A stretch of DNA of 64,000 bases, from the IMG/VR virus record IMGVR_UViG_2909314774_000001; one strand, written 5' to 3'. The position numbers and the translations under genes are program-made. Below, piece by piece: positions 1-64,000 of the stretch. A model generated the notes under the pieces. The model did no database searches, was not told the origin of the DNA, and saw nothing but the letters and a program-made list of their open reading frames with translations. Source of the stretch: a virus (Duplodnaviria; Heunggongvirae; Uroviricota; Caudoviricetes). Numbering within the stretch: position 1 is the stretch's first letter; every line of letters begins with the position of its first letter.

Positions 1-12
1 TCATTACGTAAA

Positions 13-3000
13 GTGCAATCAGAGCTAAATGATTTCTCTGATTGGGCGACCTATGCAAGCAAAAGCGCAAGCCGCTTTGGTACGGAGGTCAAAGAAGCCT
101 CTGCGTCCGTGAGTGGCATGAATACGCGCCTTAATACCACGACGAAGCGACTCAGTAATTGGGGTGTCACAACGAGTCAGGCTGCCGAGGGACTGAAAAA
201 GGTTCGTGAGCAGATGGACGAAGTTATCGGACGTCAGCAACTGATTAGCAAGCCGGTACGCGTTCGTACATCTGGAAGTGGCGATGGTGGTAGCGGGCGG
301 CGTAGCGGCGCTTCTGGCCATAGCGGTAAAAGTAACGAAGGAGGTATGTTCTCTGGCCTTCGTGGCAACATTTTCCTGCTTGGCGAGATCGGAGATGCAG
401 CCAGAACGGTTACTGACATCATGTTTGGATGGCAGAAGCCTATTGTTGAAGCTGCGGCCGAAATGGAACGTATGCGGGTGATGCTTCGTGGGTTGAATAA
501 GGAGAAGTCTAACCCTGGCCAGGCTGCCGCCGATGACATGAAGTACATCGTAGACATGGCTCAAAATGCGCCGTTCGCGATGCAGGCGTTAACAGATTCC
601 TTCGTGAAGTTTCGTTCTGCTGGCTTAGATCCAACCGATGGCTCTCTGAAGGCGCTGGTGGACTCCGTTGCTCGTTTTGGTGGTGATAGTGAGCTGTTGA
701 AACGTGCGGCTGTGGCCGTTCAGCAGATGTCCGGTAAGGGCGTCGTGTCAATGGAAGAGCTACGTCAGCAATTAGGTGAAGCCGTTCCTAACGCGATGCA
801 GGCAATGGCAGACGCCGCAGGCATCACTATGGGGGAACTGACTAAAGCCGTTGCCAGCGGTACGGTTGAGGCAAAACAGGCGTTGTCTCTGATGTTTGTT
901 GGTCTGCGTGCGGAGAATGAGAACGCAGCGAAAGACATGATGCAAACCTACACAGGTGCGCTGGCGCAACTTCAGACGTCATTCACGTTATTTGCTGATC
1001 GGGTTGGTCAGGCCGGATATCTGGATTCTCTATCGAAGGGGATGAAAGAACTGGCTTCAATCATGAATAGCGCCGAAGGGATTTCGTTTGCCAATTCTTT
1101 AGGTTCGGGGTTAACAACGGCAATCGATGGGTTGCGTCAGCTTGCTCAATGGTTAGCAAAGAACCAAGAGCTGGTAATTAATCTCGGTAAGGTCGTGGCC
1201 GCGATGGTTGCGTTCAAACTGATGCGAGCAGGGATCATGGGGGTAGTTGGCGCTGGGAGCCAGATGGTTAGCACCTTTGCCACGATGGCGACCGCCATAC
1301 AGACTCCATTTAACCTCGGCGCTACAGCAGTAACTCGATTCAATCGTGCGGCACGTATGGGGCTGGCTCCGATCCCCTCTCTTATTTTCGCCATCCGTGG
1401 GGCGATTACGGGGCTTAAAGGCGCTTTTGCTGGATTAACGGCGTTCATTGCAGCAAACCCTATAGGGGCAGCATTTACAGTTGCCACTGTAGCTGTTGCT
1501 GGCCTAATCACGTACATGACCATGCTCCGCAGCGAAACTTCAAAGGTCGTTGACGAGATTAGGAAAATACCAGAAGCGATGACAGCGGCCAAACGTGCAC
1601 AAATGGCCGACCGCGCAGAAAAGCTCGAAAAGCAGATTCTTGCTGATCAACGAGCATTAAAAACTGGTGAGGGTGTTAATTACGTATCTAACTCTGCCGG
1701 TGTTATTACTCACAAAGAGTCGAAGGCTGACATCGAAGCACGCCTGAAAAAAAATCAGGAGGAGTATCAAAAGATAACCGGCACGATAGCTCTTGGTGAC
1801 GGCGCTGTAGCAAAGCGTTTGGCTAAAGAGGCTGCCGAATCTCAGATTGAGAAAATTCGAGCGGAAAACCAGATTTTCGCGGCAACATTCGTGAAAGCCC
1901 GGCAAGAGGCTCTGGATAAGATCCAGAAAATCAATGATGACGGTTCACTTTCAGATGACGAAAAGAACAAGCTATTGGCACCGTTACGTGAAACGGTAAA
2001 CAAAAGCTATCTGGAGCCTGCGCAAAAACTGGTTGATTCACTTTCTTCTCGTAAGAATGCGACCGAGAAGCAAATTGCGACTCTTAATGATCAGCTTGAA
2101 AAAGCCAAAAAGGATGGAAATACCGAGCAGATCCAGAAACTGCAAGGCAGTATTCGTGGTTATCAGGAGCATTTGGAAGCCGTTGCTCAGGAGCTGACTC
2201 AGGCAGAGTTCGAGAGAGATAACGCGGCCAAAACTGGTAAGGGCGTAATGTCAAACCAGGGGACTGTTCTTGGGTTAGGTACAACTGATAAAGCTGCTCA
2301 GAAGGCGCTGGCGCAATATATGCGAAACCAGATGGATTCTGCGACTTATCAACGTACTTTGCCTGACGGCACTCCGATGATGGACTTCGAAGGTAAGCCG
2401 ATTATTGGGCCTAAACAACTCAAGACGCAGCTTAATTTGCAGAAAGCATCCAGCGCCAGCTCTCTGGAGAAAATGAGCGATGAAGAGCGTGCCGCAGCCA
2501 TTGCTGCACTGACTAAAGCTCGTGAACAGGATGCCGCAGCCGCCGAGAAAGCAGCCCAACGATCAGCTAACGCCTCGCAGCGTGCGGCCAAGAAGGAACA
2601 GGCAGCGCAACAGAAACTGGCAGCCGGATACCAGAAGGCTCTGGACAAAGCCGATCAGCTTATGGGGCAAATGGGTGAAAGCTCTAAGGCTACGGTATCG
2701 TTTGATCAGTCTCTTCGCGATACAACGAAATCGCTGACAGATTTGGCTAATGCGGTTCCTAACGAGTTCATCACTCAAGAGATGATCGACAAGGCGAAAA
2801 AACGTCTTGAAGACCTCAAAAATGCGACACCTGAATATCGCGAGATGTTTAATCGCCGCAATGTTGAGCAGATGATCTCCACCTGGGCACCGGAGGCGGA
2901 TTCCATTATTAGTGCTGGCTATACGCCGTCTCGCGAAGAGAAAGTTGCTGATTTCGAAGACACCTACAACCGCAATCTCAAAGCGTTGATAGAACTTCGT

Positions 3001-4224
3001 GATAAGGCGTCTGATCCTAAAGTTGTGGCGCTTTATACAAAGAAAATCAATCAACTGATTGCTGCTGGCAATACCGCGCTTATTAAAGAGACGGGGATTG
3101 CGACGCAGAAGTTGGCACTGGAATACGAAAACCTGGCAGAGCAGATCGAAAGCACCTGGACTGATTTGTTTAGTGGCTTAACTGATGTCCTGACTGATTT
3201 CGTTATTAACGGGAAGATGAGCTTCTCCAGCCTATCTCAGTCCATTTTGAAAGACATCACCAATATGGTCGTGAAGTCGCAGATCACGCTGCCTCTAATG
3301 AACATGTTGGGGATGGGAACCACCGCAGCTGGTAGTTCACAGAGTGGTAATTTGCTGACCGGGGTTGCTTCCGCCGTTGCCAATCAAGGGGTACGAATGG
3401 GCAACACTGTTAACGGCGACAAGTCGGTAGGAGAAGCCACGAAGGAGACGTCCAGTTCGGTAACTGGATTGGGGCAAACGACACAGCAGACCACCAGCGC
3501 AATTGGCACAGCAACAAATGCGATTGGTAGCTGGGTATCAGGGCTATTTGATAGCACCGAAGCCAAAGATGCTGAGACAAAAGCAGTGAAGGATTCCATC
3601 TTCTCGATGCAGAACCTCAGCTCTGTTACCGGTGCTCTGTCTGCCGCGTTTGCAATGCTTGGAGCTAATGCTTCCGGCTCTGGTAATAAGTGGTTGAATT
3701 TCGGCGCGACAGTTGCATCTGGGTTGGTTTCAGTATGGGCTGGTGGTGGATTCGATGGATTGATGTCCGGTTCTTCTGGCTCAACTTCCGGGTTCAACAA
3801 TCTGACCAGTTCTGCTGCCGATGGCACGAATGGTATTCCTGCAATTCCGAAGTTTGCAAATGGTGGCATATTCGGAAAAGACGGCGTGATCCCGCTCCGG
3901 GCATACCAGAAAGGCGGTATCGCCAACTCACCTCAATTGGCGTTGTTTGGGGAAGGCGATATGAATGAGGCGTATGTTCCATTGCCTGATGGTCGAACAA
4001 TCCCTGTAACGCTCAGTACCGATGGTATGAGTGGAGGAGGAAATGTTCTTTCTCCGGTATCAATTGAGATCAACGTCCATAGTGACGGTAGCACAACTGA
4101 ATCCGGCGATACAGAAAGCATATGGAACAATGCCGCTCAACGGATGAAAGCAATCGCGCTTGAGACTATCGCTCAAGAGAAACGCCCTGGCGGATCACTC
4201 AACCCAAACACTCAACGTAACTAA
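13..4224 (+). CDS. tail tape measure protein (lambda gpH-like)
   Basis: 1403-aa ORF directly upstream of M/L/K/I/J homologues; long alpha-helical Ala/Gln/Lys-rich body, internal hydrophobic segments, Gly-rich C-terminal region. In-frame TAA at 10-12 means the gene starts inside the window; exact start (GTG at 13 or a later ATG) uncertain. Confidence 0.8.
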   Translation: MQSELNDFSDWATYASKSASRFGTEVKEASASVSGMNTRLNTTTKRLSNWGVTTSQAAEGLKKVREQMDEVIGRQQLISKPVRVRTSGSGDGGSGRRSGASGHSGKSNEGGMFSGLRGNIFLLGEIGDAARTVTDIMFGWQKPIVEAAAEMERMRVMLRGLNKEKSNPGQAAADDMKYIVDMAQNAPFAMQALTDSFVKFRSAGLDPTDGSLKALVDSVARFGGDSELLKRAAVAVQQMSGKGVVSMEELRQQLGEAVPNAMQAMADAAGITMGELTKAVASGTVEAKQALSLMFVGLRAENENAAKDMMQTYTGALAQLQTSFTLFADRVGQAGYLDSLSKGMKELASIMNSAEGISFANSLGSGLTTAIDGLRQLAQWLAKNQELVINLGKVVAAMVAFKLMRAGIMGVVGAGSQMVSTFATMATAIQTPFNLGATAVTRFNRAARMGLAPIPSLIFAIRGAITGLKGAFAGLTAFIAANPIGAAFTVATVAVAGLITYMTMLRSETSKVVDEIRKIPEAMTAAKRAQMADRAEKLEKQILADQRALKTGEGVNYVSNSAGVITHKESKADIEARLKKNQEEYQKITGTIALGDGAVAKRLAKEAAESQIEKIRAENQIFAATFVKARQEALDKIQKINDDGSLSDDEKNKLLAPLRETVNKSYLEPAQKLVDSLSSRKNATEKQIATLNDQLEKAKKDGNTEQIQKLQGSIRGYQEHLEAVAQELTQAEFERDNAAKTGKGVMSNQGTVLGLGTTDKAAQKALAQYMRNQMDSATYQRTLPDGTPMMDFEGKPIIGPKQLKTQLNLQKASSASSLEKMSDEERAAAIAALTKAREQDAAAAEKAAQRSANASQRAAKKEQAAQQKLAAGYQKALDKADQLMGQMGESSKATVSFDQSLRDTTKSLTDLANAVPNEFITQEMIDKAKKRLEDLKNATPEYREMFNRRNVEQMISTWAPEADSIISAGYTPSREEKVADFEDTYNRNLKALIELRDKASDPKVVALYTKKINQLIAAGNTALIKETGIATQKLALEYENLAEQIESTWTDLFSGLTDVLTDFVINGKMSFSSLSQSILKDITNMVVKSQITLPLMNMLGMGTTAAGSSQSGNLLTGVASAVANQGVRMGNTVNGDKSVGEATKETSSSVTGLGQTTQQTTSAIGTATNAIGSWVSGLFDSTEAKDAETKAVKDSIFSMQNLSSVTGALSAAFAMLGANASGSGNKWLNFGATVASGLVSVWAGGGFDGLMSGSSGSTSGFNNLTSSAADGTNGIPAIPKFANGGIFGKDGVIPLRAYQKGGIANSPQLALFGEGDMNEAYVPLPDGRTIPVTLSTDGMSGGGNVLSPVSIEINVHSDGSTTESGDTESIWNNAAQRMKAIALETIAQEKRPGGSLNPNTQRN

Positions 4225-4266: not shown

Positions 4267-4602
4267 ATGGAAAGACAAACGTTTAATTGGTATCCAGATT
4301 ACGAATCTGAAAAAAGCGTAAAACCGAATGTAACGATACTTAATTTTGGTGATGACTACGAGCAGCGACAGGCTCAAGGTCTTAATCGTATTAAAGAAGA
4401 ATGGTCGTTAACCTTTACCAGATCATACAACGAAATTAATGCAATCGATGACTTCCTGACTGAGCGAGCAGGCGTTGAGTCGTTCTATTGGGTTAATCCA
4501 AGAGGAAAACGGATTGTAGTTGTATGTGACAGTCATACGGTCAAGCGATATCAGGGGTACTGTGTCTTAACTGCTACATTCAGACAAGTATTTGAGGCTT
4601 AA
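4267..4602 (+). CDS. minor tail protein M (lambda gpM-like)
   Basis: 111 aa, same size and position as lambda gpM; recalled similarity (FGDGY/FGDDYEQR segment, W-containing C-terminal half). Confidence 0.7.
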   Translation: MERQTFNWYPDYESEKSVKPNVTILNFGDDYEQRQAQGLNRIKEEWSLTFTRSYNEINAIDDFLTERAGVESFYWVNPRGKRIVVVCDSHTVKRYQGYCVLTATFRQVFEA

Positions 4603-4684
4603 GTATCTGGATAAGTAAGTACTAATTTACTATCATTGTGGCGCTGACAGGATGTTAGCGCCTACTTATTTCAAGGATGAAACA

Positions 4685-5383
4685 ATGGGAATTAAAGCTG
4701 ATATTCAGAGCTTATCTCCCTCTGCACTCATTGAGTTGTTCGTACTGGATATGTCGAACACAACTTCAGGGGGGAAGCTATTCTTCCACGCCGGAACAAA
4801 CGAACTGATGCAACCGGTCGTCTGGCAAGGAGTGACATACGAGCCGTGGCCAATCAAAGCATCAGGCTTTGACAAAACTGGCCAGGGAACGTTGCCACGT
4901 CCAAAAATTCAGGTATCGAACTTTGCCGGAACTGTCTCTGCGGAAGTTCAGGCAAACGACGATCTTGTTGGCTGCCGCATTATTCGCAAGATGACACTGG
5001 CTCGCTTCCTCGATGCCGTTAATTTTAAAGACGGCAACCCAACAGCAGATCCAAACCAACATTTCCCGGATGAAATGTGGTTTATCGAACAGAAAACTCT
5101 CGAAACTCATCAGGTTGTCGAGTTTGAATTGTCCAGTGTGTTCGATTTGATGGGGGTGCAACTGCCGTATCGTCAGATCATTAAAAACACCTGCCCGTGG
5201 AAATACCGAGGGCCAGAATGCGGCTATACCGGTCCATATTTCGACAAAAATAACCAGCAGACGTCTATGTCTGGTGCGGATTACTGCACAAAACGTTATG
5301 ACGCCTGTAATGCGCGTCGGAATTATTTTGCCGACGGTGTGATCCATTTTGGCGGATTTATTGGAGCTACGCGGTATGGGTAA
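4685..5383 (+). CDS. minor tail protein L (lambda gpL-like)
   Basis: Strong recalled similarity to lambda gpL (WQGxxYxPxPI, ARFLDAVNF, NTCxWxYRGxECGY, FGGF). Start chosen at ATG 4685 (AAGGA RBS 7 nt upstream) rather than ORF-track start 4652. Confidence 0.8.
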   Translation: MGIKADIQSLSPSALIELFVLDMSNTTSGGKLFFHAGTNELMQPVVWQGVTYEPWPIKASGFDKTGQGTLPRPKIQVSNFAGTVSAEVQANDDLVGCRIIRKMTLARFLDAVNFKDGNPTADPNQHFPDEMWFIEQKTLETHQVVEFELSSVFDLMGVQLPYRQIIKNTCPWKYRGPECGYTGPYFDKNNQQTSMSGADYCTKRYDACNARRNYFADGVIHFGGFIGATRYG

Positions 5384-6173
5384 TAAAGCAATCCCTGAGC
5401 TTGGCTCTGACGTTATGCAGCAAATCTATCTCTGCGCCATAAATCGCTACCCTAATGAAGCGTGTGGCTTTCTGGTTAGAACTAATGGCGACAAATATCG
5501 CTTTATGGAAGCGCGGAATGTTTCGGAGAACCCGCAGAACACTTTTGTAATGCACGTTGACGACATTATGGCGGCAGAGGATGCGGGTGATGTTATCGCA
5601 ATCTGGCATTCACATACTGATGAATCAGCAGAAGCATCTGATGCCGATCGTGCAGGCTGCGAAGCGACGGAAGTTCCGTGGATGATTCTGGCTATTCGCA
5701 AGAATGTTGAGGGAGATGCCCCTTTCCATTTTAGCGAGATGAATGTGATCACACCTGATGGTTTCGAAATGCCATACCTGGGCAGACCGTATGTATTTGG
5801 CGTATTCGATTGCTGGATGTTGTGTCGGGACTATTTGAAGCGTGAGTTTAACGTCGAACTAAACCCGAACGCACACCTGCATATTCCATCGTGGTACACC
5901 GGCGATAACGACATTCTCGATCAGAACTACCGTAACGAGGGATTGGTGCGTCTTGCGCCCGGAACAGAGCCTCAACGTGGGGACATCTTCTTTATCCAAT
6001 ACGGGAAAATGCCTGACCACTGCGCGGTTTATATCGGCGATGGAATGATTCTTCATCACCAGATCGACCGCCTTAGTTGTCGTGCTTATTACGGCGGAAT
6101 GTATCAGAAACATACGACGCATCACTTGCGTCACAGAGACTTGCTCAAGGGAGATGAGACGTGTCTGAGTTAG
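5376..6173 (+). CDS. tail assembly protein K (MPN/JAMM plus NlpC/P60 domains, lambda gpK-like)
   Basis: ACGF...HSHT...S.ADR JAMM-like motif followed by FDCWML and HCAVYIGDG.LHH NlpC/P60-like region; first ATG at 5376 overlaps the stop of L. Confidence 0.8.
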   Translation: MGNKAIPELGSDVMQQIYLCAINRYPNEACGFLVRTNGDKYRFMEARNVSENPQNTFVMHVDDIMAAEDAGDVIAIWHSHTDESAEASDADRAGCEATEVPWMILAIRKNVEGDAPFHFSEMNVITPDGFEMPYLGRPYVFGVFDCWMLCRDYLKREFNVELNPNAHLHIPSWYTGDNDILDQNYRNEGLVRLAPGTEPQRGDIFFIQYGKMPDHCAVYIGDGMILHHQIDRLSCRAYYGGMYQKHTTHHLRHRDLLKGDETCLS

Positions 6174-6754
6174 TTCATGTGCAGCTTGGCGGCCCTATGG
6201 CCAAACATTTTGGCCGCCACTGGCATCTAAAGGTGCGCAATACAAAACAGGCTCTGGATTTAATTGAGGCCAACAAGCCTGGGTTTAAAGCATGGATGAA
6301 GCGCAATATCAAAACCTATGACCGTTACCACATCCAGATCACCAATAAACAGGGCCACAAGTGGTCTGTTGACGAAAGTGAATATCAGATGATGGGGCAG
6401 TCTGACAACATTGCCAAAATCCGCATTACACCTGTTCCGCGAGGAAGCGGTGGATCTGCTTTTGGGTGGTTTCAGACGGTAGTAGGGGCCGCTTTGTTGG
6501 TTGTATCGGCGGTAGTGATGCCTGCTTTAGCACCTATCGGTTTGTCACTGATGATGGGCGGCATATCACAAATCATATCGCCGCAAGCCACTAACGAAAG
6601 TGTGAGACAGGCAGATAACTCGAACTCTTATTATTTCGACGGCCCTCAAAATACAGAAAACCAGGGCAACCCAGTACAACTTATCTATGGCGAGGAAATT
6701 CTGGTTGGCTCACAGGTTGTGAGTTCTTCAATCACGATTGACCAGCTAATGTAA
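6161..6754 (+). CDS. tail assembly protein I (lambda gpI-like)
   Basis: 197 aa between K and J homologues, GTG start overlapping K stop, hydrophobic C-terminal half as in lambda gpI. Confidence 0.65.
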   Translation: MSELVHVQLGGPMAKHFGRHWHLKVRNTKQALDLIEANKPGFKAWMKRNIKTYDRYHIQITNKQGHKWSVDESEYQMMGQSDNIAKIRITPVPRGSGGSAFGWFQTVVGAALLVVSAVVMPALAPIGLSLMMGGISQIISPQATNESVRQADNSNSYYFDGPQNTENQGNPVQLIYGEEILVGSQVVSSSITIDQLM

Positions 6755-9700
6755 ACAAGGATTTTTTTGAACATGGAACAGTTCAAGAAGAAAAAGTTAC
6801 CGCTGTTTATTGCAGGTGCGGGTGGTAAAAAAAGCAGCAAAAGCTCTAGCCGTACACCGGTTGAAGCCGACGATACCGTAAATTCTCGTGCAATGGCCGC
6901 TATCCTCGATCTTCTTGGGGAAGGTGTAATTGGCGGCTTGGTAAATGGCGCAAGATCTATTTTTGTCGACGATCTGCCGATTGTAAATGAAGACGGTTCC
7001 TCCAACTTCAGCGGAATCACATGGGATTTTCGCGACGGTTCGCAAGACCAGACTCCAATGTCTGGCTTTGATTTCGTTGAAACGCCTAAATCCGTCAATA
7101 TCCAGTTAAAAAAAACACATTATGTAACGGTTTCAATCGATAACGATGAAGCTGATCGGGTTCGTGTCATCATGAAGTTTCCTTCTTTGCGAAGCATAGA
7201 TAAAAAAACTGGTGACACGAACGGTACAACCGTTGAGTACAAGTTCCAGATAGCAAATGGCGACTCAACATTTGTAGATGTGGTCGCAGAAGGTGAAAAA
7301 AGCGTTGGCATTAAGCTAACAGCAAAGAAGACAGGTGTTTATTACCGTAGCTATGAGCTGAAGCTGCCTAAGCCTGGACGCGCGTACAAGGTTCGTGTAG
7401 TCCGTATTACCGATGATAACAGCAGCCAGTATCTCTATAACGATACATGGGTGGACTCAATAGGTGAGATTGTAGATACACCGATGAACTACCCAAACTC
7501 TGTGCTGGTGGGTCTGAAGGTTAATTCTGAGCAGTTTGGTAGCACCATGCCATCTCGTTCGTATTTGGTACGTGGATTAAAAATTCGCGTGCCGTCAAAC
7601 TACAACGAGGCCAGCAACACTTATGATGGTGTATGGGATGGCACTTTTAAGCTGTTGTCTTCTTCAAACCCCGCGTGGATTCTCTTTGATTTGCTTACCA
7701 ATGCTCGATATGGCCTTGGTCAGTATGTGTCGGAATCTATGATTGACCTCGGCCAGCTATACCAGATCGGTCGATATTGTGACGAAGAGGTTGATGATGG
7801 CTTTGGTGGTAAAGAGAAACGCTTTGCAATCAATACGCAGATCACCAGTCGACAGGACGCATACCGATTAATTCAGGATATTGCCGGTGCATTCCGCGGT
7901 ATGGTGTTTTGGGCTGGTGGCATGGTTAACATCATGCAGGATAGCCCATCAGATCCGGTAATGATGTTTACCAACTCTAACGTCAAAGATGGATTGTTTA
8001 CCTATAAAGGTTCTGCGCGTAAAGATCGCCCATCCGTTGCGCTCGTAACCTACAACAACAAGGAGGACGGTTATAAGCAAAACATCGAGTACGTTGAAGA
8101 TCAGGACGCAATGCGCCGTTATGGTGAGCGTAAGACAGAAGTCGTAGCATTTGGCTGTACAAGCCGAGGGCAGGCTCACCGAGTTGGTTTGTGGCTTTTA
8201 TATACCGCCAGAATGGAGTCGGATGTAATTACATTTACTGCCGGCTTAGACGCGTCATTTCTGATGCCTGGTGAAACCGTTCTGATTCAGAACAAATATC
8301 GCGCAGGCAAACGTAACTCAGGTCGAATTGTGGCGTTTACCAAAAACAGCGTCACACTCGATGCGCCGGTGTCGTTAGCCAAAGGCGGCTGCTTTATTCG
8401 AATACTGAATCAGGAAGGCAAAATCGTTGAACGCGATGTTCTTGAAACTGGCGAAAATATAACAAAAGTTACGTTTTCAAAATCCCTGTCTTCGGCTGAA
8501 ACGCCTGTTTTGAACGGCGTCTGGACTATTACAGAACCAGACCTCGAACCTATGCGCGTTCGCATCGTTAACATCGCGCAGGGGGAAACGCCGGGTAGCT
8601 TTGACATCACCGCTGTTGAGAACAATCCGTCTAAATATGAGGCAATCGACAATGGTGCAACGCTGATCCCGCAGAATACGACGGTATTGGACCCAACTTA
8701 CTCCAAGCCATCTAATCTGCAAATCACTGAAGGGACTTATCTCTCAAGCCCGGGCAACCTGTCAGTAAAACTGACTGCAACATGGGAAGGGAAATCTCCA
8801 GAGTATTGGATCAGTTGGCGACGTTCTGATGAAAACAATGTATCGAACTGGCAATCGGCGCGTGTAACCGAAGAGCAATACGAAATCGTTAATGTCGCGG
8901 AGAATGGACGCTACGACTTCCAACTGTATGCGGTTTCATTCAACGGTAAAAAAACAGAAATTATCAGTACCGTTTATCAGGTGCTGGGCACAATGACACC
9001 GCCGGATGCACCAACGTCATTAACGGCCGTTGGAGACTATCGTAATGTGATACTGAATTGGGTTAATCCAGATTCGGTGGACCTTGATCACATTAATGTT
9101 TACGCATCCCAGACCAACAATCTGGATACGGCGAAACTGATCGCAGAGTCTGCAAGCACCACCTTTACACATGCTGGTCTTGGGGATAGCGAAACGTGGT
9201 ATTACTGGGTTCGAGCATCGAACAAGCGAGGTATGTTAAGTCCTCCGAACTCAAACTTGGGTACAGAGGCGACAACTCGCGATGTACTGTCGTTCCTGAC
9301 TGGCAAAATTACATCTTCCGAGCTTGGTCAGGCTCTGCTTGAGGACATCAACAGCAAAGCCTCTCAAGAAGCAGTTGACGAGTTAAATGAGCATATCAAC
9401 CAGAGCGTCGAATCTTTGGAGGGGGCGGTAAACGACGTTAAGGAAGATATAGCTGAATTAGATAAGCAGTTCAGCGATAACCTCGCGGATTTTGAAATAA
9501 AATTCAACGAGCGTAGCGATGCTTTGGAGAACGCACAAACCGAGCTTAAAGGTGAGGTTTCGGCAACGATTGACAAGGTCAATGAAGCGTTTGAAAAAAT
9601 TGATGCTACTGATGCTGCAATTGTTGAAATCGAAAACACCGTATCTGAACACGATAAAGCTCTCGCTAATACAGTCGAGGCAATAAAGGCTGCAAGAGAT

Positions 9701-10041
9701 GAAGCGGCGGCTCTTATTGCTAAGGAAAGCGAGGCTCGTGTTGAAGGCGATGCTGCAAACGCTAAACAACTGGAAGTGTTGCAGTCAACGGTAGAGGAAA
9801 GCTCCGCTGCCGTTGAAGAAATGAAAAAGACGGTTGCAGAGGTCGATCGTGCCAGTGCAGAACTGACTACGAACATTGAGGCGTTAGCCAAAACAAATAT
9901 TGACCTGGCTCTTCGTCAAGATGAAGACCAGCACAAGCAGATGGTCAATAACGCGAAGATCGCAACAACACAGAAAACCTTTGCTGATGATATGTCTGCA
10001 ATGGCCACGAAGGTTGAGGAAATTCGGGTAATGACTCCAAC

Positions 10042-10545
10042 TTACTGATAGTGTTTTATGTTCAGATAATGCCCGATGACTTTGTCATGCAGCTCCACCG
10101 ATTTTGAGAACGACAGTGACTTCCGTCCCAGCCTTGCCAGATGTTGTCTCAGATTCAGGTTATGTCGCTCAATGCGCTGAGTGTAACGCTTGCTGATTAC
10201 GTGCAGCTTTCCCTTCAGGCGGGATTCATACAGCGGCCAGCCATCCGTCATCCATACCACGACCTCAAAGGCCGACAGCAGGCTCAGAAGACGCTCCAGT
10301 GTGGCCAGAGTGCGTTCACCGAAGACGTGCGCCACAACCGTCCTCCGTATCCTGTCATACGCGTAAAACAGCCAGCGCTGACGTGATTTAGCACCGACGT
10401 AGCCCCACTGTTCGTCCATTTCAGCGCAGACAATCACATCACTGCCCGGCTGTATGCGCGAGGTTACCGACTGCGGCCTGAGTTTTTTAAGTGACGTAAA
10501 ATCGTGTTGAGGCCAACGCCCATAATGCGGGCGGTTGCCCGGCAT
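10042..10545 (-). CDS. insB: IS1 InsB (transposase made as InsAB' by -1 frameshift)
   Basis: 167-aa frame matching IS1 InsB; the A6C slippery motif (TTAAAAAACTC on the coding strand) lies at 10481-10491 in the insA/insB overlap. Confidence 0.9.
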
Positions 10546-10739
10546 CCAACACCATTCATGGCCATATCAATGATTTTCTGGTGTGTACCGGGTTGAGAAG
10601 CGGTGTAAGTGAACTGCAGTTGCCATGTTTTACGGCAGTGAGAGCAGAGATAGCGCTGATGTCCGGCAGTACTTTTACCGTTACGCACCACGCCTTCAGT
10701 AGCTGAGCAGGAGGGACAACTGATGGAGATGGAAGCCAC
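10464..10739 (-). CDS. insA: IS1 InsA transposition regulator
   Basis: 91 aa [40 protein letters not shown]..., near-identical to canonical IS1 InsA as recalled; zinc finger CPSC...CSHC. Confidence 0.93.
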
Positions 10740-10905
10740 GGGAGCACCTCAAAAACACCATCATACACTAAATCAGTAAGTTGGCACCATTACCGAAATT
10801 CGCGTAGAAATTGGCGAAGACATTAAGGCCAGTATTCTGGAAGAGTCCACCGCTCGTGCCGATGGCGATGAAGCGTTGGCAAAGCGTGTCACTCAGCTGC
10901 AATCT

Positions 10906-47090: not shown

Positions 47091-47150
47091 TCCCATTACG
47101 TGACCAGTAAGGCGTCTACGGACGCCTTACTTTTTGGAAGGAATGTACCG

Positions 47151-52662: not shown

Positions 52663-52664
52663 GG

Positions 52665-53720: not shown

Positions 53721-53764
53721 TCCAAATGTCTCTTGTTATTCGACGGCTTTGGTGGCCTTTGCTG

Positions 53765-53888
53765 ATTACAGTGGATAGTAGCACTCATCACAGCGGTTAT
53801 CCTACCGTCTATAGTGGTTTTTCTCCTCTCTATAGTGGTTGCTTTGCTCCCTATAGTGGATTATTCGCTCTCTATAGTGGATATCGAT
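53765..53888. repeat. origin iterons immediately upstream of repA
   Basis: Five to six direct repeats spaced ~21 bp with core CTATAGTGG (gtctatagtggttt, ctctatagtggttg, ccctatagtggatt, ctctatagtggata). Confidence 0.8.
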
Positions 53889-53995
53889 CATGTCTGAAGG
53901 CAGATGGCACAACGGTTTGAGGTTGGCGGGGATCTTATTGGGTCTTTATGGGTCTCTTTGGTTCTCTTTGTGATCTGAATTACTGGATCGGGCCT

Positions 53996-54051
53996 GTGGA
54001 TAAAAATCAGAGGATTTCAAGAACAGGTAACTCTACTCTTCTGTGGATATT
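53996..54051. promoter_or_regulatory. DnaA boxes in AT-rich origin region
   Basis: TGTGGATAA (53996-54004, perfect DnaA box on opposite strand) and TGTGGATAT (54043-54051) between two iteron arrays; a third iteron array (CTCTACAGTGG-like, 5 copies) lies at 54161-54270. Confidence 0.6.
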
Positions 54052-54462
54052 TAAGGACATAAGAATCATGACTAAGAGTAGAGTTGAGATATATCTATGT
54101 ATATCAGTATGTTAATGAAGAATTAAGTCATTAAGTTATCCATAAAAGACAATGTGCTCTACTCTCTACAGTGGATATATACAGCTCTCCAGAGTGGTTG
54201 TTTTACTCTTCATAGCGGTTATTCAGCTCTCTACAGAGGTTTCTTTGCTCTCCATAGTGGATGGCAACACCCTTTCAGACCAGTAACCGCAACGGCTAGA
54301 GGCGATCGGGGATCTCTTTGGATCTTCTATTTGATCTTACTTGGGATCTCTTATTTGGATCTATCCAGTGGATAACTGGGATAAGTAAAACAGGCAAATG
54401 CAGATTAAGGTATGCCTAATGAGTTATCGTAGCATCGGCCAATAACTACTGAAAAAACGATT

Positions 54463-55362: not shown

Positions 55363-56448
55363 ATGACTTTGCCATACGGCGTCATTTCTGACTGCCACTA
55401 CCATAAATGGGATGCGTTCTCCACGACGAACGCTGAGGGGCTTAACTCCAGACTTGAAATACAGTTGGAAGCAACGAAAGAAGCAGCCATCGCCATGAAG
55501 AAGGCCGGTTGTAAGTACATGTTGGTTGCCGGTGATACATTTCACGTCCGAGGAACTGTGTCCCCTTCTGTTTTGCATTACGTAACTGAAACGTACAAGT
55601 GGATTATCAACGAGCTTGATCTGACAGTAGTAATGCTGGCCGGTAATCACGATCTTGAAACCAACGATTCAGTATATAGCGCCAACGCAGCAGCATCGCT
55701 GAGTTCTATCGGCGTGGTAATCGTATGTGGCAAGCGCCCACACTCAATAAAAATTGGTGATGTGACTGTCCACCTGATTAGCTGGCGTAACAATCATGCG
55801 GAGCTTATCAGCGATCTGAAAGCATTACGTAAGAGCGTAGAAGGTGATAATCATGACGTTGTTATCCATACATCCATTAACAAAGCCATTCCAACAATGC
55901 CTGACGTCGGTATCGATGCGCAGGAGTTAAAGGATATCGGCTTTCGTCTCGTGCTTAGTGGGCATTACCACAACCACAAAGAGGTCATTCCTGGAGTTAT
56001 CAGTGTCGGTGCACTGACTCATCAAAATTGGGGAGATGTTGGATCTCTGGCTGGCTACATGATCGTAAACCCGGACGGCAGTTTCAGTCACTACGAAACC
56101 AGTGCGCCTAAATTCATTAACCTGGAAGATGATGTTGCTGATGACCAAATTCGCGGCAACTACGTGCGTTTCCGCGCCGTAATTGAGAACGATGAAGAAG
56201 GCATTAAGTACCAGAACATCCTCAAAACAATGGGTGCAAAAGGTGTCGTGTGCAACTTCATCCGTAAGTCATCAATGATGGAAGGTACAGCCAGCACAAC
56301 TGAAACCAGCAAAATCGATAGCCTGGGAGAGTCGGTATCTGCTTATTGCAAGATTGTCCACGATACTGACGGCGGATTTGATCTGAGCAAATTGGATATT
56401 TTGTGTCAGGAAATCCTCACCGAAGCGGAGAGTTCGGAGGCTGTGTGA
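55363..56448 (+). CDS. SbcD/Mre11-like nuclease (calcineurin-like phosphoesterase)
   Basis: Phosphoesterase motifs LVAGDTFH, MLAGNHD, LSGHYHN; conserved AAAGGAAAAACACATG start context; followed by the SbcC-like gene. Confidence 0.75.
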   Translation: MTLPYGVISDCHYHKWDAFSTTNAEGLNSRLEIQLEATKEAAIAMKKAGCKYMLVAGDTFHVRGTVSPSVLHYVTETYKWIINELDLTVVMLAGNHDLETNDSVYSANAAASLSSIGVVIVCGKRPHSIKIGDVTVHLISWRNNHAELISDLKALRKSVEGDNHDVVIHTSINKAIPTMPDVGIDAQELKDIGFRLVLSGHYHNHKEVIPGVISVGALTHQNWGDVGSLAGYMIVNPDGSFSHYETSAPKFINLEDDVADDQIRGNYVRFRAVIENDEEGIKYQNILKTMGAKGVVCNFIRKSSMMEGTASTTETSKIDSLGESVSAYCKIVHDTDGGFDLSKLDILCQEILTEAESSEAV

Positions 56449-56677
56449 AGCAAAGTCGTTATGGGAGCTTTCGAGACTTTGCCATCACGATGAAAAGACT
56501 TGAACGAGGCCAGACGGTGATGTTTCACAAGCCCTACCCGCCACAAGGAAATCCCGTAGCGTTTTATCTTGGAAGGTTAACAAGAAAAGGCGTATTGAGG
56601 CGCAGATCCTTCCCGGCGCATACGGAGTTCAGATTGAAAGAAGGCCAAAAGCTAACACACGGTATCAGAGGTGTTAT

Positions 56678-58594
56678 ATGAAGTTTTTAAAGCTCCAGGT
56701 TGAGAATTTTATGGCTATCGCCAGCGCGGAGGTCGAGTTAGATCAGCGTGGTTTAGTGCTTATTCAGGGTGTTAATAGTGATGATAGTTCCGCATCAAGT
56801 AATGGCTCTGGAAAGTCAACTCTAATGAATAGCCTGATGTGGTGTCTTTATGGCGAAACAGCTCATGGTGTGAAGGGTGACGATGTGTTGTCTACCGACC
56901 ATGAAAAGAACTGTCGTGTTGCAGTAACCATCGAGGATGAAGGCAAGAGATACGCAATCATTCGTCACCGTAAACACAAAGAGTTCAAAAATCGTCTTAT
57001 CGTTCGTGGTGAAGATGGCGATATGACGAAAGGCAAAGATGCGCTGACGCAGGAGTTCGTCGAGCGTCTGATCGGTGCATCTAAAGAGGTTTTCATGGCT
57101 TCCATCTATGCGAGCCAAGAAGCTATGCCAGATTTACCTGGAATGTCCGACAAAAACCTCAAAACCATCGTAGAAGAAGCCGCTGGCGTTGACAGACTGA
57201 CACGCGCCTACGCTATTGCTCGTGAGCGAGCTAATGCAGCTGCCGCACGTATGGATGTGGTTAAAACCAAATTGGAGTCGACAATCTCGACCATTGAGGC
57301 AACACAGTCAGAAATTGAGTCAGCGAAAGCCTCCTCTGAATCATGGGAGCAAGAGCGTTCTAAACGTTATGACGATGCCCTGGCTGGGCTGGCCAGTGCC
57401 GAAGTTGAGTTAACGGAAGTTGAACTTGAGATCCGCACTCTTCCCGAACAGATACGTGATACCGAGAAGGCAATCGAAAGTGAGCGCAAAAAGTTAGCCT
57501 CAAAAGAAGAACATGACGCCAAGTTGCTCAAAGTTCGTGGTGCGATAACTGATATTCGGGCAAGCATCAAAGCTACAGAAAATAGTCAGGCTGATGCAAT
57601 GAGCCGCGCGCGTAATTTTAAGACCAAAGCAGAAGAGGTTGGTACTAAAGTGGGATCACCATGCCCTACTTGTGGCAAAGCCTACTGCGAAGAAGATCTA
57701 TCAACGGTGAAGGAGAATTTCATTGAACAAGCACGTCAGGAAATTGGTCAGGCGAAGACACTTGCAGAGGCAATGGCTAAACACAAAACGAATCTTGAGA
57801 AAGCGTTAAGCATTGAGTCTGCCCTTGTTAAAACGACACCTGATGTAACGGCTATCATTGCCCGGATTGAAGAGCTTACGAAACAACTCTCATCTTTGCG
57901 TCATCGTGAGAAGGAGGTTGTTGCTATTGAGTCTCTTGTGACTCGTGCTCGTACTGAGGTCGATCGTATATCAAAAGAGATTAATCCGTTTATTGCTCTT
58001 ATCGCCAGACACGAAGATAACCTGGTATCCAGTAAGTCTACCTTCAAGTCCTTAAAAGATGAGTTGAAGGCTATTCAGGAACAAACGTTGCTATTGGAAA
58101 AAGCTCGTCAGGTCTACTCTCCTGCCGGGGTGCGTTCTCATATTTTGACGTCTGTTACGCCTTTCCTGAATACACGCACTGCCGAGTATCTCAATACGTT
58201 GTCTGACGGGAATATTACTGCTGAGTGGTCGACGATGGATGTCACTAAAAAAGGTGAGTATCGCGACAAATTCAACATTAGTGTGCAGAAGAAAGGTTCA
58301 AGTAAGTCGTTCCAGACCCTCTCTGGTGGTGAGAAGCGGAAGGTTCGCATTGCGTGTTCTTTGGCATTGCAGGATCTGGTTAGTAACCGGGCGAGTAAAA
58401 ACATCGATTTGTTTATCGGCGACGAAATTGACGATGCACTCGATACAGCCGGTCTTGAACGCCTCATGGGTATTCTGGAGTCCAAAGCTCGCGAGCGAGG
58501 TACTGTGCTGATTATCTCCCATAAAGAGATGAAGTCATGGTTCCGGGAAACTATTACGCTGGAAGTTAAAGAGGGGCGCAGCTATGTCGTTTAA
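56678..58594 (+). CDS. SbcC/Rad50-like ATPase
   Basis: N-terminal Walker A GSGKST, long central coiled coil with CPTCG zinc-hook-like motif, C-terminal signature and Walker B (LSGGEKRK, LFIGDEIDDALD). Confidence 0.75.
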   Translation: MKFLKLQVENFMAIASAEVELDQRGLVLIQGVNSDDSSASSNGSGKSTLMNSLMWCLYGETAHGVKGDDVLSTDHEKNCRVAVTIEDEGKRYAIIRHRKHKEFKNRLIVRGEDGDMTKGKDALTQEFVERLIGASKEVFMASIYASQEAMPDLPGMSDKNLKTIVEEAAGVDRLTRAYAIARERANAAAARMDVVKTKLESTISTIEATQSEIESAKASSESWEQERSKRYDDALAGLASAEVELTEVELEIRTLPEQIRDTEKAIESERKKLASKEEHDAKLLKVRGAITDIRASIKATENSQADAMSRARNFKTKAEEVGTKVGSPCPTCGKAYCEEDLSTVKENFIEQARQEIGQAKTLAEAMAKHKTNLEKALSIESALVKTTPDVTAIIARIEELTKQLSSLRHREKEVVAIESLVTRARTEVDRISKEINPFIALIARHEDNLVSSKSTFKSLKDELKAIQEQTLLLEKARQVYSPAGVRSHILTSVTPFLNTRTAEYLNTLSDGNITAEWSTMDVTKKGEYRDKFNISVQKKGSSKSFQTLSGGEKRKVRIACSLALQDLVSNRASKNIDLFIGDEIDDALDTAGLERLMGILESKARERGTVLIISHKEMKSWFRETITLEVKEGRSYVV

Positions 58595-59327
58595 ATTAAG
58601 CCGCTCGCAGTTTTTGCAGGTATTTGCAGTGATGCAGTCGATAAAACTGATCAATGGGCATACTTCCAATGGTGCGGCTCCACGTATTCTGTGGGGCAGC
58701 AACAATATTGACGGAGTACAATTCGCCGCGTTGCTTGGTCTAATATCCGAGACGCCATTGATGCAAAGTTTGAAATCACTACCACCTGGATGTATTGCGC
58801 CGATCCTGATTAATCCTTTTGTTGAGGGGGGATATCTTCCCAACGTCGGGCCTGGGTTTATTGCATCCCATGAAACTGAAGATCTTAACATTAATAGCGA
58901 AGGGTTCTTTGGGGGAATGGGTGCGCATCACTGTATGGCTTTCACGAACCTTATTCGACTTGCCAATAAGCGGGTGGATAGTTTGGCATCGCCAGGTGAT
59001 GCTTTTACTGGTTTCCTTATCCAAAGGAGGGATAAAAAGTACAGTGCGGACAAACTACAGTTTGTTGGTAAGTATGGAGAAATGGTAGAAATCGAACTTC
59101 AGCTCCCTCATGTTTTAGCAAACGATAGTGCAGACAGTCGGAGGCTATTGGGCATCATGCGTCATTTCATAGCAAGTGGTGTTAAACATGCCGCAGATAA
59201 ACGTGTCACGCAGGAAAATGAGTATTCAGACTTTGCAAACTATCCCCAACCAACGTTGCAAACGGCAATAGTAGCCAATTCGTTGGAGGCGAGATTATTG
59301 GAAAACCCTATATGGGGAACATGGTAA
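58584..59327 (+). CDS. hypothetical protein
   Basis: 247-aa ORF between the SbcC-like and RuvC-like genes; no motif recognised. Confidence 0.35.
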   Translation: MSFKLSRSQFLQVFAVMQSIKLINGHTSNGAAPRILWGSNNIDGVQFAALLGLISETPLMQSLKSLPPGCIAPILINPFVEGGYLPNVGPGFIASHETEDLNINSEGFFGGMGAHHCMAFTNLIRLANKRVDSLASPGDAFTGFLIQRRDKKYSADKLQFVGKYGEMVEIELQLPHVLANDSADSRRLLGIMRHFIASGVKHAADKRVTQENEYSDFANYPQPTLQTAIVANSLEARLLENPIWGTW

Positions 59328-59336
59328 GGAGACTAT

Positions 59337-59906
59337 ATGAGTAAAAAAATCAGCGTAGTTGGTGTTGATCCCTCAATGAGCAACTTTGGGCTTGCTGTGG
59401 GCACTTTAGACCTTGAGACGGACGAACTTGAGATTCACGGCCTTACTCTTGTTGAGACTAAAGCGGGGAGTAACAAAAAGACCGTTCGTGTGAACAGTGA
59501 CGATCTGCGCCGCGCCAGTGAAATATGGCGTGTTGCGAAGCCAATCATTGATAAGGCAAATATGGTTTTTTGTGAGCTACCGGTTGGGAGCCAAAACTCT
59601 CGTTCGCAGACGTCTTACGGTATTTGTATCGGTGTACTTGCGTGTGTGGATAAGCCATTGATCCAGGTTACTCCAAACGAAATCAAGCATTTTGTCGGCA
59701 ATAAACTTACTACATCGAAAGAAGAGATTATCCAGTGGGCTACGAAAAAACACCCTAAAGCACCGTGGCTGCGTCGTAAGCAATCTGGACAGGATGTTCT
59801 CGTGAACAAAAACGAACATTTGGCTGATGCGGTGGCTGCCATCCATACCGGTATGCAAACAGATCAGTTCCGCCAGGTGCGCGATGTTCTTAAGTCTCTC
59901 ATTTGA
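59337..59906 (+). CDS. RuvC-like Holliday junction resolvase
   Basis: N-terminal ISVVGVDPSMSNFGLAV (RuvC-type first catalytic Asp in a beta-strand) and C-terminal acidic catalytic region; 189 aa. Confidence 0.55.
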   Translation: MSKKISVVGVDPSMSNFGLAVGTLDLETDELEIHGLTLVETKAGSNKKTVRVNSDDLRRASEIWRVAKPIIDKANMVFCELPVGSQNSRSQTSYGICIGVLACVDKPLIQVTPNEIKHFVGNKLTTSKEEIIQWATKKHPKAPWLRRKQSGQDVLVNKNEHLADAVAAIHTGMQTDQFRQVRDVLKSLI

Positions 59907-63543: not shown

Positions 63544-63620
63544 ACCGATACAAAGCATTATGTGGCCTGGCAACGCTGGGCCACAATGGATCACAAGAAT
63601 TAAGAAGGAACAAAACTAGC

Positions 63621-64000
63621 ATGAACTTTACCAAACTGACTGACCACCTGAAACTTGCCACCGATCGACTCATTGGATTTAAGCCAGAACCATATGAGTT
63701 GCATGAAGGTCATGGTGTAGCTACTGAAAGTATTTACAAGATGGTCGATCAGTTTCATGAACTATTCCAGCATCCGAGACGCGTTATGCCGACACCAGAG
63801 CTGCTTCGTCTCCGTGCAAGCCTGATTCATGAAGAAGCTGTAGTGGAAGGTATTCCAGCCGCAATGAATGGGGATATTGAGCAACTGCTGGATGCAATGG
63901 CCGACTTTTTATACGTTGGTGTTGGTACGATGGTCGCCATCAAAGGTGGTATTTCTACCGGCATGACCTATTACACGCAGGAACAGAGCATTGATCGCTT
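63621..64000 (+). CDS. partial ORF, possibly MazG-like all-alpha NTP pyrophosphohydrolase (runs off window end)
   Basis: ELHEGHGVATESIYK ... LIHEEAVVE ... LLDAMADFLYVG, reminiscent of MazG/dUTPase-type all-alpha NTP-PPases; 3' end truncated by the window. Confidence 0.35.
   Translation, partial: MNFTKLTDHLKLATDRLIGFKPEPYELHEGHGVATESIYKMVDQFHELFQHPRRVMPTPELLRLRASLIHEEAVVEGIPAAMNGDIEQLLDAMADFLYVGVGTMVAIKGGISTGMTYYTQEQSIDR

Follow-up and report, generated by a model that had tools for sequence, protein, structure and literature searches.

The 64,000-nt stretch of viral DNA analyzed here, referred to as the window, carries lambda-type tail genes together with a plasmid replicon, and this raises the questions of what kind of element it comes from and whether this copy may still travel as a virus. 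Phage-plasmids are temperate phages that live in the cell as low-copy plasmids. An earlier note had listed lambda-type tail-tip genes, DnaE, NrdAB, ligase, a gp32-like SSB, SbcCD, tRNAs, an iteron replicon, ParA, a toxin-antitoxin pair, IS1 and low-GC genes, and had proposed an SSU5/pHCM2-like phage-plasmid; each of these features was located again in our analysis (Table 1).

Table 1. Features of the 64-kb window, in order of position (aa, amino acid)
Feature	Position	Strand	Evidence or remark
Tail tape measure	1..4224	+	Pfam TMP_3, Tape_meas_lam_C; 89% aa identity to SSU5_015
M-like tail-tip gene	4267-4602	+	Pfam Phage_min_tail; intact
L tail-tip gene	4685-5383	+	Pfam Phage_tail_L; intact
K tail-tip gene	5376-6173	+	Pfam JAB+NlpC/P60; intact
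I tail-tip gene	6161-6754	+	phrog_32 tail assembly protein; intact
Gene J (TipJ / host-specificity protein), 5' part	6773..10048	+	Pfam Phage-tail_3, FNIII-A_GpJ
IS1 (768 bp)	10027..10794	-	Sequence read; uninterrupted site in NZ_CP104844.1; IS1 family transposase matches
IS1 insB frame	10042-10545	-	InsB-size ORF
IS1 insA	10464-10739	-	InsA-size ORF
Gene J, 3' remnant: C-terminal tail-tip (receptor-binding) domain, without own start	10803..12276	+	Pfam Phage_Tail_Tip
Side tail fibre	12370-17655	+	Pfam Gp34_trimer, gp37_trimer, Peptidase_S74
Gp38-type adhesin	17665-18504	+	Pfam GP38, Gp38_N
Lysis cassette (holin-like, endolysin, spanin-like)	18579..19861	+	SSU5_026-028 homologues; phrog_873 endolysin
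GNAT acetyltransferase toxin	20030-20551	-	Pfam GNAT families
TacA antitoxin	20562-20828	-	Pfam TacA1, E 8.6e-26
ParF-like ParA (222 aa)	21147-21815	+	Pfam MipZ/AAA_31/CbiA
ParA partner, abutting (117-119 aa)	21821-22174	+	SSU5_034 homologue
KAP-family P-loop NTPase, low-GC cargo gene	22226..23932	+	Windowed GC 0.31; Pfam KAP_NTPase
Replication block	24114..30210	+	Pfam; 87-93% aa identity to SSU5_039/040/044
Conserved 246-aa protein, first in replication block		+	
DnaB-like helicase	24898-26238	+	Pfam
Primase	26380-27498	+	Pfam
ATP-dependent DNA ligase	28888-30210	+	Pfam
tRNA array Asn(GTT), Tyr(GTA), Thr(TGT), Ser(TGA)	31637..32289	+	ARAGORN; Rfam tRNA
Low-GC gene (420 aa)	32482..33744	-	Windowed GC 0.36; phrog_18168 (PHROG without assigned function)
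Tyrosine recombinase	34376-35479	+	Pfam Phage_integrase; phrog_1/phrog_8 for recombinase-HTH module
Divergent HTH protein overlapping recombinase	35474-35860	-	Pfam HTH_19
CobT-like VWA protein, AAA_5 ATPase, Pol III alpha	36423..43561	+	Pfam
Pol III alpha (DnaE)	40043-43561	+	Pfam; 93% aa identity to SSU5_052
cspA-type 5'-UTR thermoregulator	43840..44258	-	Rfam RF01766, 183 bits
Cold-shock protein gene	43868-44080	-	Pfam CSD
Recombination block (gp32-family SSB, 5'-3' exonuclease, small ORF, RecA)	46062..49437	+	Pfam gp32, 5_3_exonuc_N, RecA
gp32-family SSB	46062-47090	+	Pfam gp32
Plasmid replicon	52231..54373	.	repA, flanking iterons, DnaA box
Iterons, about 10	52231-52661	both	Motif matches
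Rep3-type RepA (repA)	52668-53720	-	Pfam Rep3_N/Rep3_C; 91% aa identity to SSU5_069
Iteron inside repA	52856		One copy
Iterons, four	53807-53882		21-bp spacing
DnaA box	53995-54003		
Single iteron	54036		
Iterons, five more	54164-54373		
SbcD-like nuclease gene	55363-56448	+	Pfam Metallophos
SbcC/Rad50-like nuclease gene	56678-58594	+	Pfam AAA_23, SMC_N, SbcC_Walker_B
RuvC-like protein	59337-59906	+	Weak RuvC match
Class Ia ribonucleotide reductase NrdA	59980-62295	+	Pfam
Class Ia ribonucleotide reductase NrdB	62401-63543	+	Pfam

Family membership of the window

In a protein comparison, Salmonella phage SSU5 was colinear with the window: 42 of 49 genes matched with their order kept (41-98% amino acid identity), the matches covering SSU5 from 10978 to 71403, and the nucleotide identity was approximately 80-81% over 56-62% of the query. 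The nucleotide search that the earlier note had called for placed circular plasmids of E. coli, E. albertii and Shigella, together with Cyrano and SSU5, on top. More than 100 such plasmid records, 106-113 kb in size, were 97-99.7% identical to the window, all near-full-length matches were plasmid records of 106-120 kb, and the matches in the phage collection were Escherichia phage Cyrano (pLF82; 97% identity), CMS-2020a, PhiR41_1 and SSU5 itself. The one relative checked in PLSDB, NZ_CP104844.1 (99.7% identical), is a circular plasmid of IncFIB type, classed as non-mobilizable. Its genes for terminase, portal and major capsid proteins lie beyond the window's range; terminase, portal and capsid genes are present in SSU5 too, and the 64-kb window spans the tail genes and contains no contig ends. 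Alignment to a relative revealed that every reference CDS other than J is full length in the window. These comparisons bear out the SSU5/pHCM2-like assignment, and we consider it very probable, judging from sequence, that the window is part of an SSU5-type phage-plasmid, roughly 60% of one member of the SSU5 supergroup from the E. coli/Shigella lineage. Its relatives are pLF82 (phage Cyrano) and the pECOH89-like and pSLy3-like plasmids; the family is already known, and the window is ordinary apart from its IS1-split gene J.

The SSU5 supercommunity was described as IncFIB and siphoviral (PMC7969092), phage-plasmids of these types were, up to now, found only outside the chromosome (PMC9600943), and their sizes range from 85 to 134 kb for pSLy3 and from 94 to 126 kb for SSU5_pHCM2 (PMC12977533). 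In the literature, the E. coli/Shigella elements are assigned to clades J-K, where J is the pSLy3 subgroup and K comprises pWPMR2-like elements. For Cyrano, the phage-plasmid state was shown by experiment: the element is present at 5.5 copies per cell, shows a 39-fold induction by ciprofloxacin and inducibly produces infectious siphovirus virions (PMC9928086).

The gene of the Phage_integrase family, located approximately 2 kb from the four tRNA genes, could also be read as the tyrosine integrase of a chromosomally integrated prophage lying beside a tRNA array. However, the replicon block was found in 246 of 5,426 complete E. coli genomes, at 386 places, all of them plasmid and none chromosomal; moreover, the near-full-length matches are exclusively plasmids, the tRNAs are the element's own (they hold the same position in relatives and in SSU5) and there is no host flank within the 64 kb, which makes a chromosomal origin highly improbable. 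An integrated lambdoid prophage was rejected on the plasmid-only replicon block and the window's lack of host flank. The best matches were neither the chromosomal prophage nor the unrelated phage that the earlier note had named as counter-evidence. The interleaving of phage and plasmid genes and the presence of IS1 might, in turn, point to two elements joined by misassembly or by recent cointegration, a reading that we rejected and to which we assign practically no weight: the identical interleaved order is shared by SSU5 virion DNA and over 100 plasmids that were closed independently, and the IS1, with a simple target duplication, lies within one gene (which heals cleanly) and not at a phage/plasmid boundary.

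Replicon, partition and accessory genes

RepA is 100% identical to that of the IncFIB-typed NZ_CP104844.1. The iteron motif CTMTAYAGTGGWT has 27 matches in the window against 5.6 expected, 21 of which cluster around repA. The presence of iterons upstream and of a second set downstream of the gene points to initiation combined with copy control by handcuffing, of the kind known from P1 and F.

ParA is 91% identical to SSU5_033 (ParA-like partition protein), and together with its partner shows 91-92% amino acid identity to SSU5_033/034. Its best PDB match is ParF (4dzz, E 1.2e-10), and the match to NCBIfam ParA_partition (E 1.9e-33) is below the family cutoff. The pair had been described earlier as ParA/RHH partition genes, of which the ParA part stands, but for the partner no RHH family scored above threshold: it gave no PDB sequence match, no Pfam match at E<=1, and a sub-threshold match (E 2.3e-4) to the aCcr1 family, which we take to be an RHH protein. 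A single-sequence AlphaFold model of the partner, of low confidence (pLDDT 64), has a disordered N-terminal tail with helices after it. Type Ib (ParF/ParG-like) systems pair a small Walker-type ParA that lacks an N-terminal HTH with an RHH protein binding the centromere. Since a repeat search near parA gave only short two-copy repeats and palindromes, we claim no centromere there.

The TacA antitoxin gene lies directly upstream of the GNAT toxin gene on the same strand, and the two form a putative TacAT-type type II pair, whose counterpart in Cyrano was named KacT toxin and putative antitoxin CYRAN_27 (PMC9928086). Homologues of the Cyrano genes labelled HicA/HicB are also found (44413-45009 and 45037-45258, minus strand); as they lack Pfam and NCBIfam support, a second toxin-antitoxin pair is not counted.

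The KAP NTPase matches PADLOC PDC-S49 (E 1.6e-21) and is a candidate defence gene; NZ_CP104844.1 holds another gene in this slot. The 420-aa gene gave no match in Pfam, NCBIfam, PADLOC or SSU5, and its PHROG was the only hit. Because the low-GC genes are missing from SSU5 and replaced in relatives, they are accessory, and because IS1 interrupts J it marks decay; in both respects our results agree with the earlier reading of these parts as accessory or decaying. The HTH protein beside the recombinase is a homologue of the 'putative repressor' CYRAN_45 of the Cyrano annotation, and expression of the Cyrano recombinase/HTH module in the lysogen was reported (PMC9928086). An Rfam scan of the window revealed nothing beyond the tRNAs and the cspA thermoregulator.

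Phage genes and the IS1 insertion in gene J

The recombination block shows 88-95% amino acid identity to SSU5_057-060, NrdA/NrdB 86-87% to SSU5_078/079, and the lysis genes 98%, 94% and 76% to SSU5_026-028 (putative holin, endolysin and Rz-like spanin, respectively). Two genes of unassigned product are listed between primase and ligase in the replication block. The SbcD/SbcC-like block (55363..59906), whose naming also draws on RefSeq in a relative, includes one further gene without an assigned product. The 'T4/T7-like' label given earlier to the replication genes holds for gp32 and, by function, for NrdAB, which are T4-like, but is loose, since the polymerase belongs to the bacterial Pol III alpha type.

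The lambda-type tape measure and M/L/K/I/J genes span positions 1-12276. The tape measure, whose 5' end is off the window, aligned to residues 117-1525 of a relative's 1525-aa protein, and the M-like/L/K/I block (4267..6754) follows the lambda order with 86-96% amino acid identity to SSU5_016-019. Downstream of J, the fibre and adhesin block (12370..18504) is the region most divergent from the nearest plasmid; by a relative's annotation, the side tail fibre would start at 12754.

Gene J is split by an IS1. Its 5' part ends after 1091 codons, the final few of which, with the stop, are supplied by IS1; J's own sequence is broken off after residue 1086, and 484-489 C-terminal residues are lost. 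The element has the features of its family, namely a length of 768 bp, terminal inverted repeats (GGTAATGACTCCAACTTACTGAT and an imperfect inverse of GGTAATGACTCCAACTTACTGAT), insA/insB frames and a short target duplication (the 8-bp GAAATTCG at 10019-10026 and 10795-10802), and is 96-99.7% identical to annotated IS1 copies. When IS1 was taken out in silico, a J of 1575 aa was restored, identical at 1571 of 1575 positions to the intact J of a relative. The insertion is recent and, since no record among the complete E. coli genomes or in PLSDB covers the exact IS1-J junction, private to the window's copy.

In lambda, tail assembly begins with J, whose C-terminus binds the receptor. Hence, the phage route of the window's element is predicted to be blocked or impaired, and by this analogy infectivity has likely been lost in this copy. 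Given that all genes but J are intact, the copy is probably still a stable plasmid, but one whose particles would be non-infectious or tip-defective. An unlikely alternative is that the element has remained fully functional and transmissible, either because the truncated J suffices and the gp38-tipped side fibres adsorb, for which a complete fibre and adhesin module is available downstream, or because IS1-free copies are mixed in, as a recent insertion could vary among several plasmid copies per cell (compare the Cyrano copy number). The intactness of every gene but J fits this view; however, the lost residues include the Phage_Tail_Tip domain, whose receptor-binding role in lambda is established, IS1 may be polar on the downstream fibre genes, and the assembled sequence has the interrupted J allele only. 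The activity of such an element cannot be read from sequence alone, since one E. coli SSU5-like element was non-inducible even without a known lesion (PMC9600943). Altogether, an SSU5-supergroup phage-plasmid in lysogeny whose phage route is predicted to be impaired by IS1 in J is, with high probability, the best explanation of the window.

Proposed lifestyle and comparison with known systems

We propose that in lysogeny the element would be kept as a low-copy circular plasmid, with RepA binding the iterons on either side of its gene, at an origin containing a DnaA box as well, the ParF-like ParA and its small partner segregating the plasmid copies, and the putative TacA/GNAT pair killing plasmid-free segregants; multimer resolution is the most likely role of the tyrosine recombinase. 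Upon DNA damage, the element would turn to the phage replisome that it encodes (DnaB-like helicase, primase, Pol III alpha, gp32 SSB and ligase), with RecA, the 5'-3' exonuclease and the SbcCD-like nuclease serving recombination and NrdAB and glutaredoxin supplying dNTPs, and would then build a lambda-type siphovirus tail and lyse the cell. Such a lytic switch was shown for Cyrano and is presumed for the window's element. With J cut after residue 1086 and its tail-tip domain gone, the phage route would be blocked or badly impaired, whereas plasmid maintenance would be untouched.

We lean, with moderate confidence, toward the view that the window's copy is a phage-plasmid turning into a mere plasmid via one very recent IS1 in J. 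If so, viral horizontal transfer would be lost while replication, partition, addiction and cargo, including the KAP-NTPase candidate defence gene, would be kept, which would represent the first step of a phage-plasmid to plasmid conversion in the SSU5 supergroup; conversion of this kind was described for P1-like elements (PMC10879196). For the epidemiologist, a copy with a broken J should spread vertically as a plasmid, not by infection. Knowledge of the family is unchanged by this copy, and the main value lies in correct annotation, as such elements are frequently catalogued under 'cryptic IncFIB plasmids' or prophages. SSU5-type elements are common, as the frequency of the replicon block indicates, and carry resistance genes: the nearest relative, NZ_CP104844.1, has ISEcp1-blaCTX-M-55, plus dfrA51 further on.

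Among known systems, Cyrano (pLF82 of E. coli LF82, OV696614) and the NZ_CP104844.1-like plasmids have a backbone with 97-99.7% nucleotide identity to the window's; they agree with it in gene order and tRNA site and also possess its int/HTH module, TacA-GNAT pair and RepA replicon. In contrast to these, the window has its private IS1 in J, another distal tail fibre with a Gp38 adhesin, a cargo slot occupied by a KAP NTPase, four tRNAs (three in Cyrano) and a short RecA (the Cyrano CDS has 2340 nt), and the ISEcp1-blaCTX-M-55 site of NZ_CP104844.1 is empty. SSU5 (JQ965645 / NC_018843), the type member of the supergroup, likewise has the lambda-type tail, lysis cassette, ParA and partner, helicase/primase/ligase, CobT/AAA, DnaE, gp32/exonuclease/RecA, RepA, SbcCD-like genes and NrdAB. 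Unlike the window, it has one tRNA and, in the protein comparison, no counterpart of the TacAT pair, KAP NTPase, 420-aa gene, glutaredoxin, integrase or HTH protein (HTH128); the J C-terminus shows 61% amino acid identity, and the fibre and adhesin are divergent. pHCM2 of S. Typhi is placed in the same group as SSU5 by the literature.

P1, the classic phage-plasmid, persists as a low-copy plasmid in the prophage state and enters lytic growth through an SOS-linked switch. Like the window's element, it combines an iteron-flanked repA, ParA-type partition, an addiction module and a site-specific recombinase, but the sequences are not meaningfully related (a single Punavirus record appeared among weak matches), and P1 differs in being a myovirus and in having type Ia ParA/ParB and Phd/Doc, whereas the window's element has siphovirus genes, a ParF-like ParA of putative type Ib and the TacAT pair. 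The lambda tail tip (M, L, K, I, J, Stf/Tfa) corresponds to that of the window in gene order and in the Pfam families of M, L, K, J and the tape-measure C-terminus, while elsewhere the genome is not related to lambda; the window's J has 1575 aa when intact, and its side fibre carries T-even Gp34/gp37 domains and an S74 chaperone domain, with a T2-type Gp38 adhesin in place of Tfa.

Gene content and family membership

Profile searches with translations of the window, nearly all of which is coding and on the plus strand, recovered every gene class that the earlier note had named from sequence alone. Its description of the replication genes as T4/T7-like did not hold for the set as a whole, since the polymerase is a bacterial-type DnaE, although the genes themselves were found. 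Of the proposed ParA/ribbon-helix-helix partition genes, ParA was confirmed (best PDB match 4dzz, ParF-like) and is abutted by a partner gene of 117-119 aa, but a ribbon-helix-helix fold could not be demonstrated for the protein encoded after parA by PDB, Pfam and NCBIfam comparison and modelling.

Searched against plasmids, the opening 25 kb, the central part and the final 24 kb of the window aligned at 97-99.7% nucleotide identity to circular plasmids from E. coli, E. albertii and Shigella, 106-120 kb in size. In the phage collection the matches were Escherichia phage Cyrano (97%), CMS-2020a and PhiR41_1, with SSU5 of Salmonella aligning at about 80-81% identity over 56-62% of the query. SSU5 protein matches were obtained for 42 of 49 window genes, in conserved order (SSU5 10978 to 71403) and at 41-98% amino acid identity (mean near 82%). 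Both lines agree with the SSU5-like phage-plasmid proposed previously, and the window shares with the SSU5 group this colinear homology, an IncFIB-type replicon, ParA and the tail module. We consider the assignment to the SSU5-type family, with a phage-plasmid lifestyle, highly likely. The family is well described, and the literature places its E. coli and Shigella elements in clades J (pSLy3 subgroup) and K (pWPMR2-like); most of the SSU5 supercommunity is IncFIB, with a siphoviral morphology predicted (PMC7969092). Among the records examined in full, the nearest is NZ_CP104844.1, a non-mobilizable, circular E. coli plasmid of IncFIB type (112,215 bp), whose other 48 kb carry terminase, portal, major capsid, thymidylate synthase, dfrA51 and more phage genes.

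Features of the window
Feature	Coordinates	Strand	Remarks
Tape measure, lambda-type C-terminal domain			tail; profile search
Tape-measure segment	1611-1803
M, L, K (JAB+NlpC/P60), I, J			tail tip, lambda order; profile search
IS1, 768 bp	10027-10794	-	inside J; 8-bp duplication GAAATTCG
Long side tail fibre and adhesin	12370-18504		tail; T-even Gp34/gp37 trimer domains, C-terminal S74 intramolecular-chaperone domain, T2-type Gp38 adhesin; profile search
Glycine-codon repeat	18178-18200		Gp38 adhesin gene
KAP-family P-loop NTPase	22180-23935		GC 0.31; between par genes and helicase block
DnaB-like helicase, primase, ATP-dependent ligase, Pol III alpha, gp32-family SSB			replication and repair; profile search
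5'-3' exonuclease, RecA, SbcD/SbcC-like proteins, NrdA/NrdB			replication and repair; profile search
Empty site	about 30944-30948		near tRNA array
tRNA genes (4)	31637-32289
420-aa gene	32482-33744	-	GC 0.36 region; between tRNA array and glutaredoxin, antisense to neighbours
cspA-type 5'-UTR thermoregulator	43840-44258	-	full length; Rfam RF01766, 183 bits
Gene pair	44413-45258	-	homologues annotated in Cyrano
Rep3-type RepA, small ParA, TacA/GNAT pair, tyrosine recombinase			plasmid functions; profile search
Iterons, about ten	52231-52661		both orientations; downstream of repA
repA	52668-53720	-	iterons on both flanks
Iterons, 4 copies	53807-53882		exact 21-bp spacing; just upstream of repA
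DnaA box, perfect	53995-54003
Second iteron array	54164-54373

Seven genes have no counterpart in SSU5, and all of them are accessory: the two genes of the TacAT toxin-antitoxin system, the KAP NTPase, the low-GC gene of 420 aa, glutaredoxin, the integrase and an adjoining HTH protein. Two low-GC pockets were seen, at 22-24 kb (GC 0.31) and 32-34 kb (GC 0.36). For the KAP NTPase, PADLOC gave a match to its candidate defence family PDC-S49 (E 1.6e-21) and PHROGs one to phrog_4740; since NZ_CP104844.1 and SSU5 have unrelated genes at this position, the par-helicase interval is a variable cargo slot. NZ_CP104844.1 carries the 420-aa gene at 100% identity, and SSU5 lacks it; the gene had no match in Pfam, NCBIfam or PADLOC, its sole match being phrog_18168 (unknown function). 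Just upstream of the tRNA array NZ_CP104844.1 carries ISEcp1-blaCTX-M-55, annotated as frameshifted, with a WbuC fragment (30854-33822 in its record, L001), whereas the window has the empty site.

Directly after dnaE, a 71-aa cold-shock protein gene lies downstream of the thermoregulator, so that the element carries a temperature-sensing, host-like gene. In Cyrano the homologues of the gene pair at 44 kb are annotated as a HicB antitoxin and a HicA toxin. Pfam and NCBIfam both gave no support for this identity in the window proteins, and PHROGs labels the larger gene 'excisionase and transcriptional regulator'. The RecA CDS of Cyrano (L006, the phage record, 22851-25190) is 2340 nt long, and that of the window 1074 nt. 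LAGLIDADG or Hint-domain ORFs are among the features listed for the dnaE-to-nrdB stretch in several relatives (H60-H63 and H66 among those listed); no such ORF occurs in the window. The long RecA and these ORFs probably reflect inteins or homing endonucleases gained and lost within the family.

Plasmid state and replicon

An 8.7-kb query spanning repA, the iterons and the sbcCD-like genes had matches in 246 of the 5,426 complete E. coli genomes searched; each of the 386 matching places is on a plasmid and none is chromosomal. Since the replicon is exclusively plasmid-borne in this set, the alternative raised in the earlier note, an integrated prophage, is rejected, and the absence of chromosomal copies also argues against an integrase role for the tyrosine recombinase. 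To date, SSU5-type elements have been found only outside the chromosome (PMC9600943).

The iteron core around repA is CTMTAYAGTGGWT, which matched 27 times in the window (chance expectation 5.6 for the whole window; none of 100 shuffled sequences reached 27), with 21 of these matches inside the 2.1-kb repA stretch. By sequence, the iteron replicon is complete. In the P1 and F replicons iterons likewise lie on both sides of repA, and by analogy the flanking arrays may serve copy control. Among the matches to window 50600-59300 at 76% coverage (e.g., NZ_CP019013.1) are many plasmids whose backbone is 97-98% identical and in which a 'RepB family plasmid replication initiator' takes the place of the Rep3-type RepA and its iterons; the replicon has been swapped on a single phage backbone.

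IS1 in J and tail variation

The only noteworthy feature of the window copy is a fresh IS1 knockout of the tail-tip gene J. The uninterrupted target site is present in NZ_CP104844.1, and taking out IS1 and one duplicate yields a J of 1575 aa (1571/1575 identical to that of the plasmid); as found, the J reading frame ends after 1091 codons and the Phage_Tail_Tip domain is lost from it. J excepted, all CDSs of NZ_CP104844.1 are full length in the window. Because the IS1-J junction is absent from all 5,426 E. coli genomes and every PLSDB record, the insertion is a recent, private event. By analogy with lambda, the truncated J would block or cripple tail-tip formation and receptor binding, and the element would therefore now depend on vertical inheritance. 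Loss of infectivity in this copy is thus likely, and the copy plausibly stands at an early point in the conversion of a phage-plasmid to a plain plasmid.

It is in the distal fibre block (about 13.8-18.5 kb) that the window departs most from the nearest plasmid. The side fibre is a mosaic: its N-terminal part shows about 84% nucleotide identity to lambdoid side-tail-fibre genes, and the T-even trimer domains and the S74 domain come after it, with the adhesin gene next in line. In the tape measure, one short, locally variable segment has no megablast-level alignment to the nearest plasmid between flanks aligning at 97-98%.

Proposed lifestyle and known systems

RepA and the iterons would initiate replication, possibly under handcuffing control, ParA would drive segregation, the GNAT toxin may mediate post-segregational killing and the tyrosine recombinase may resolve multimers. 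Lytic replication would use the element's own helicase, primase, DnaE, gp32 and ligase, with dNTPs presumably supplied by NrdAB. The close relative Cyrano has been shown to live as a low-copy plasmid, at 5.5 copies per cell, and to undergo SOS-type induction, which is 39-fold with ciprofloxacin and yields siphovirus particles with the expected tail length (PMC9928086). The element belongs with SSU5, Cyrano/pLF82 and the pSLy3-like E. coli plasmids; it resembles P1 in its way of working, although the two are unrelated in sequence.
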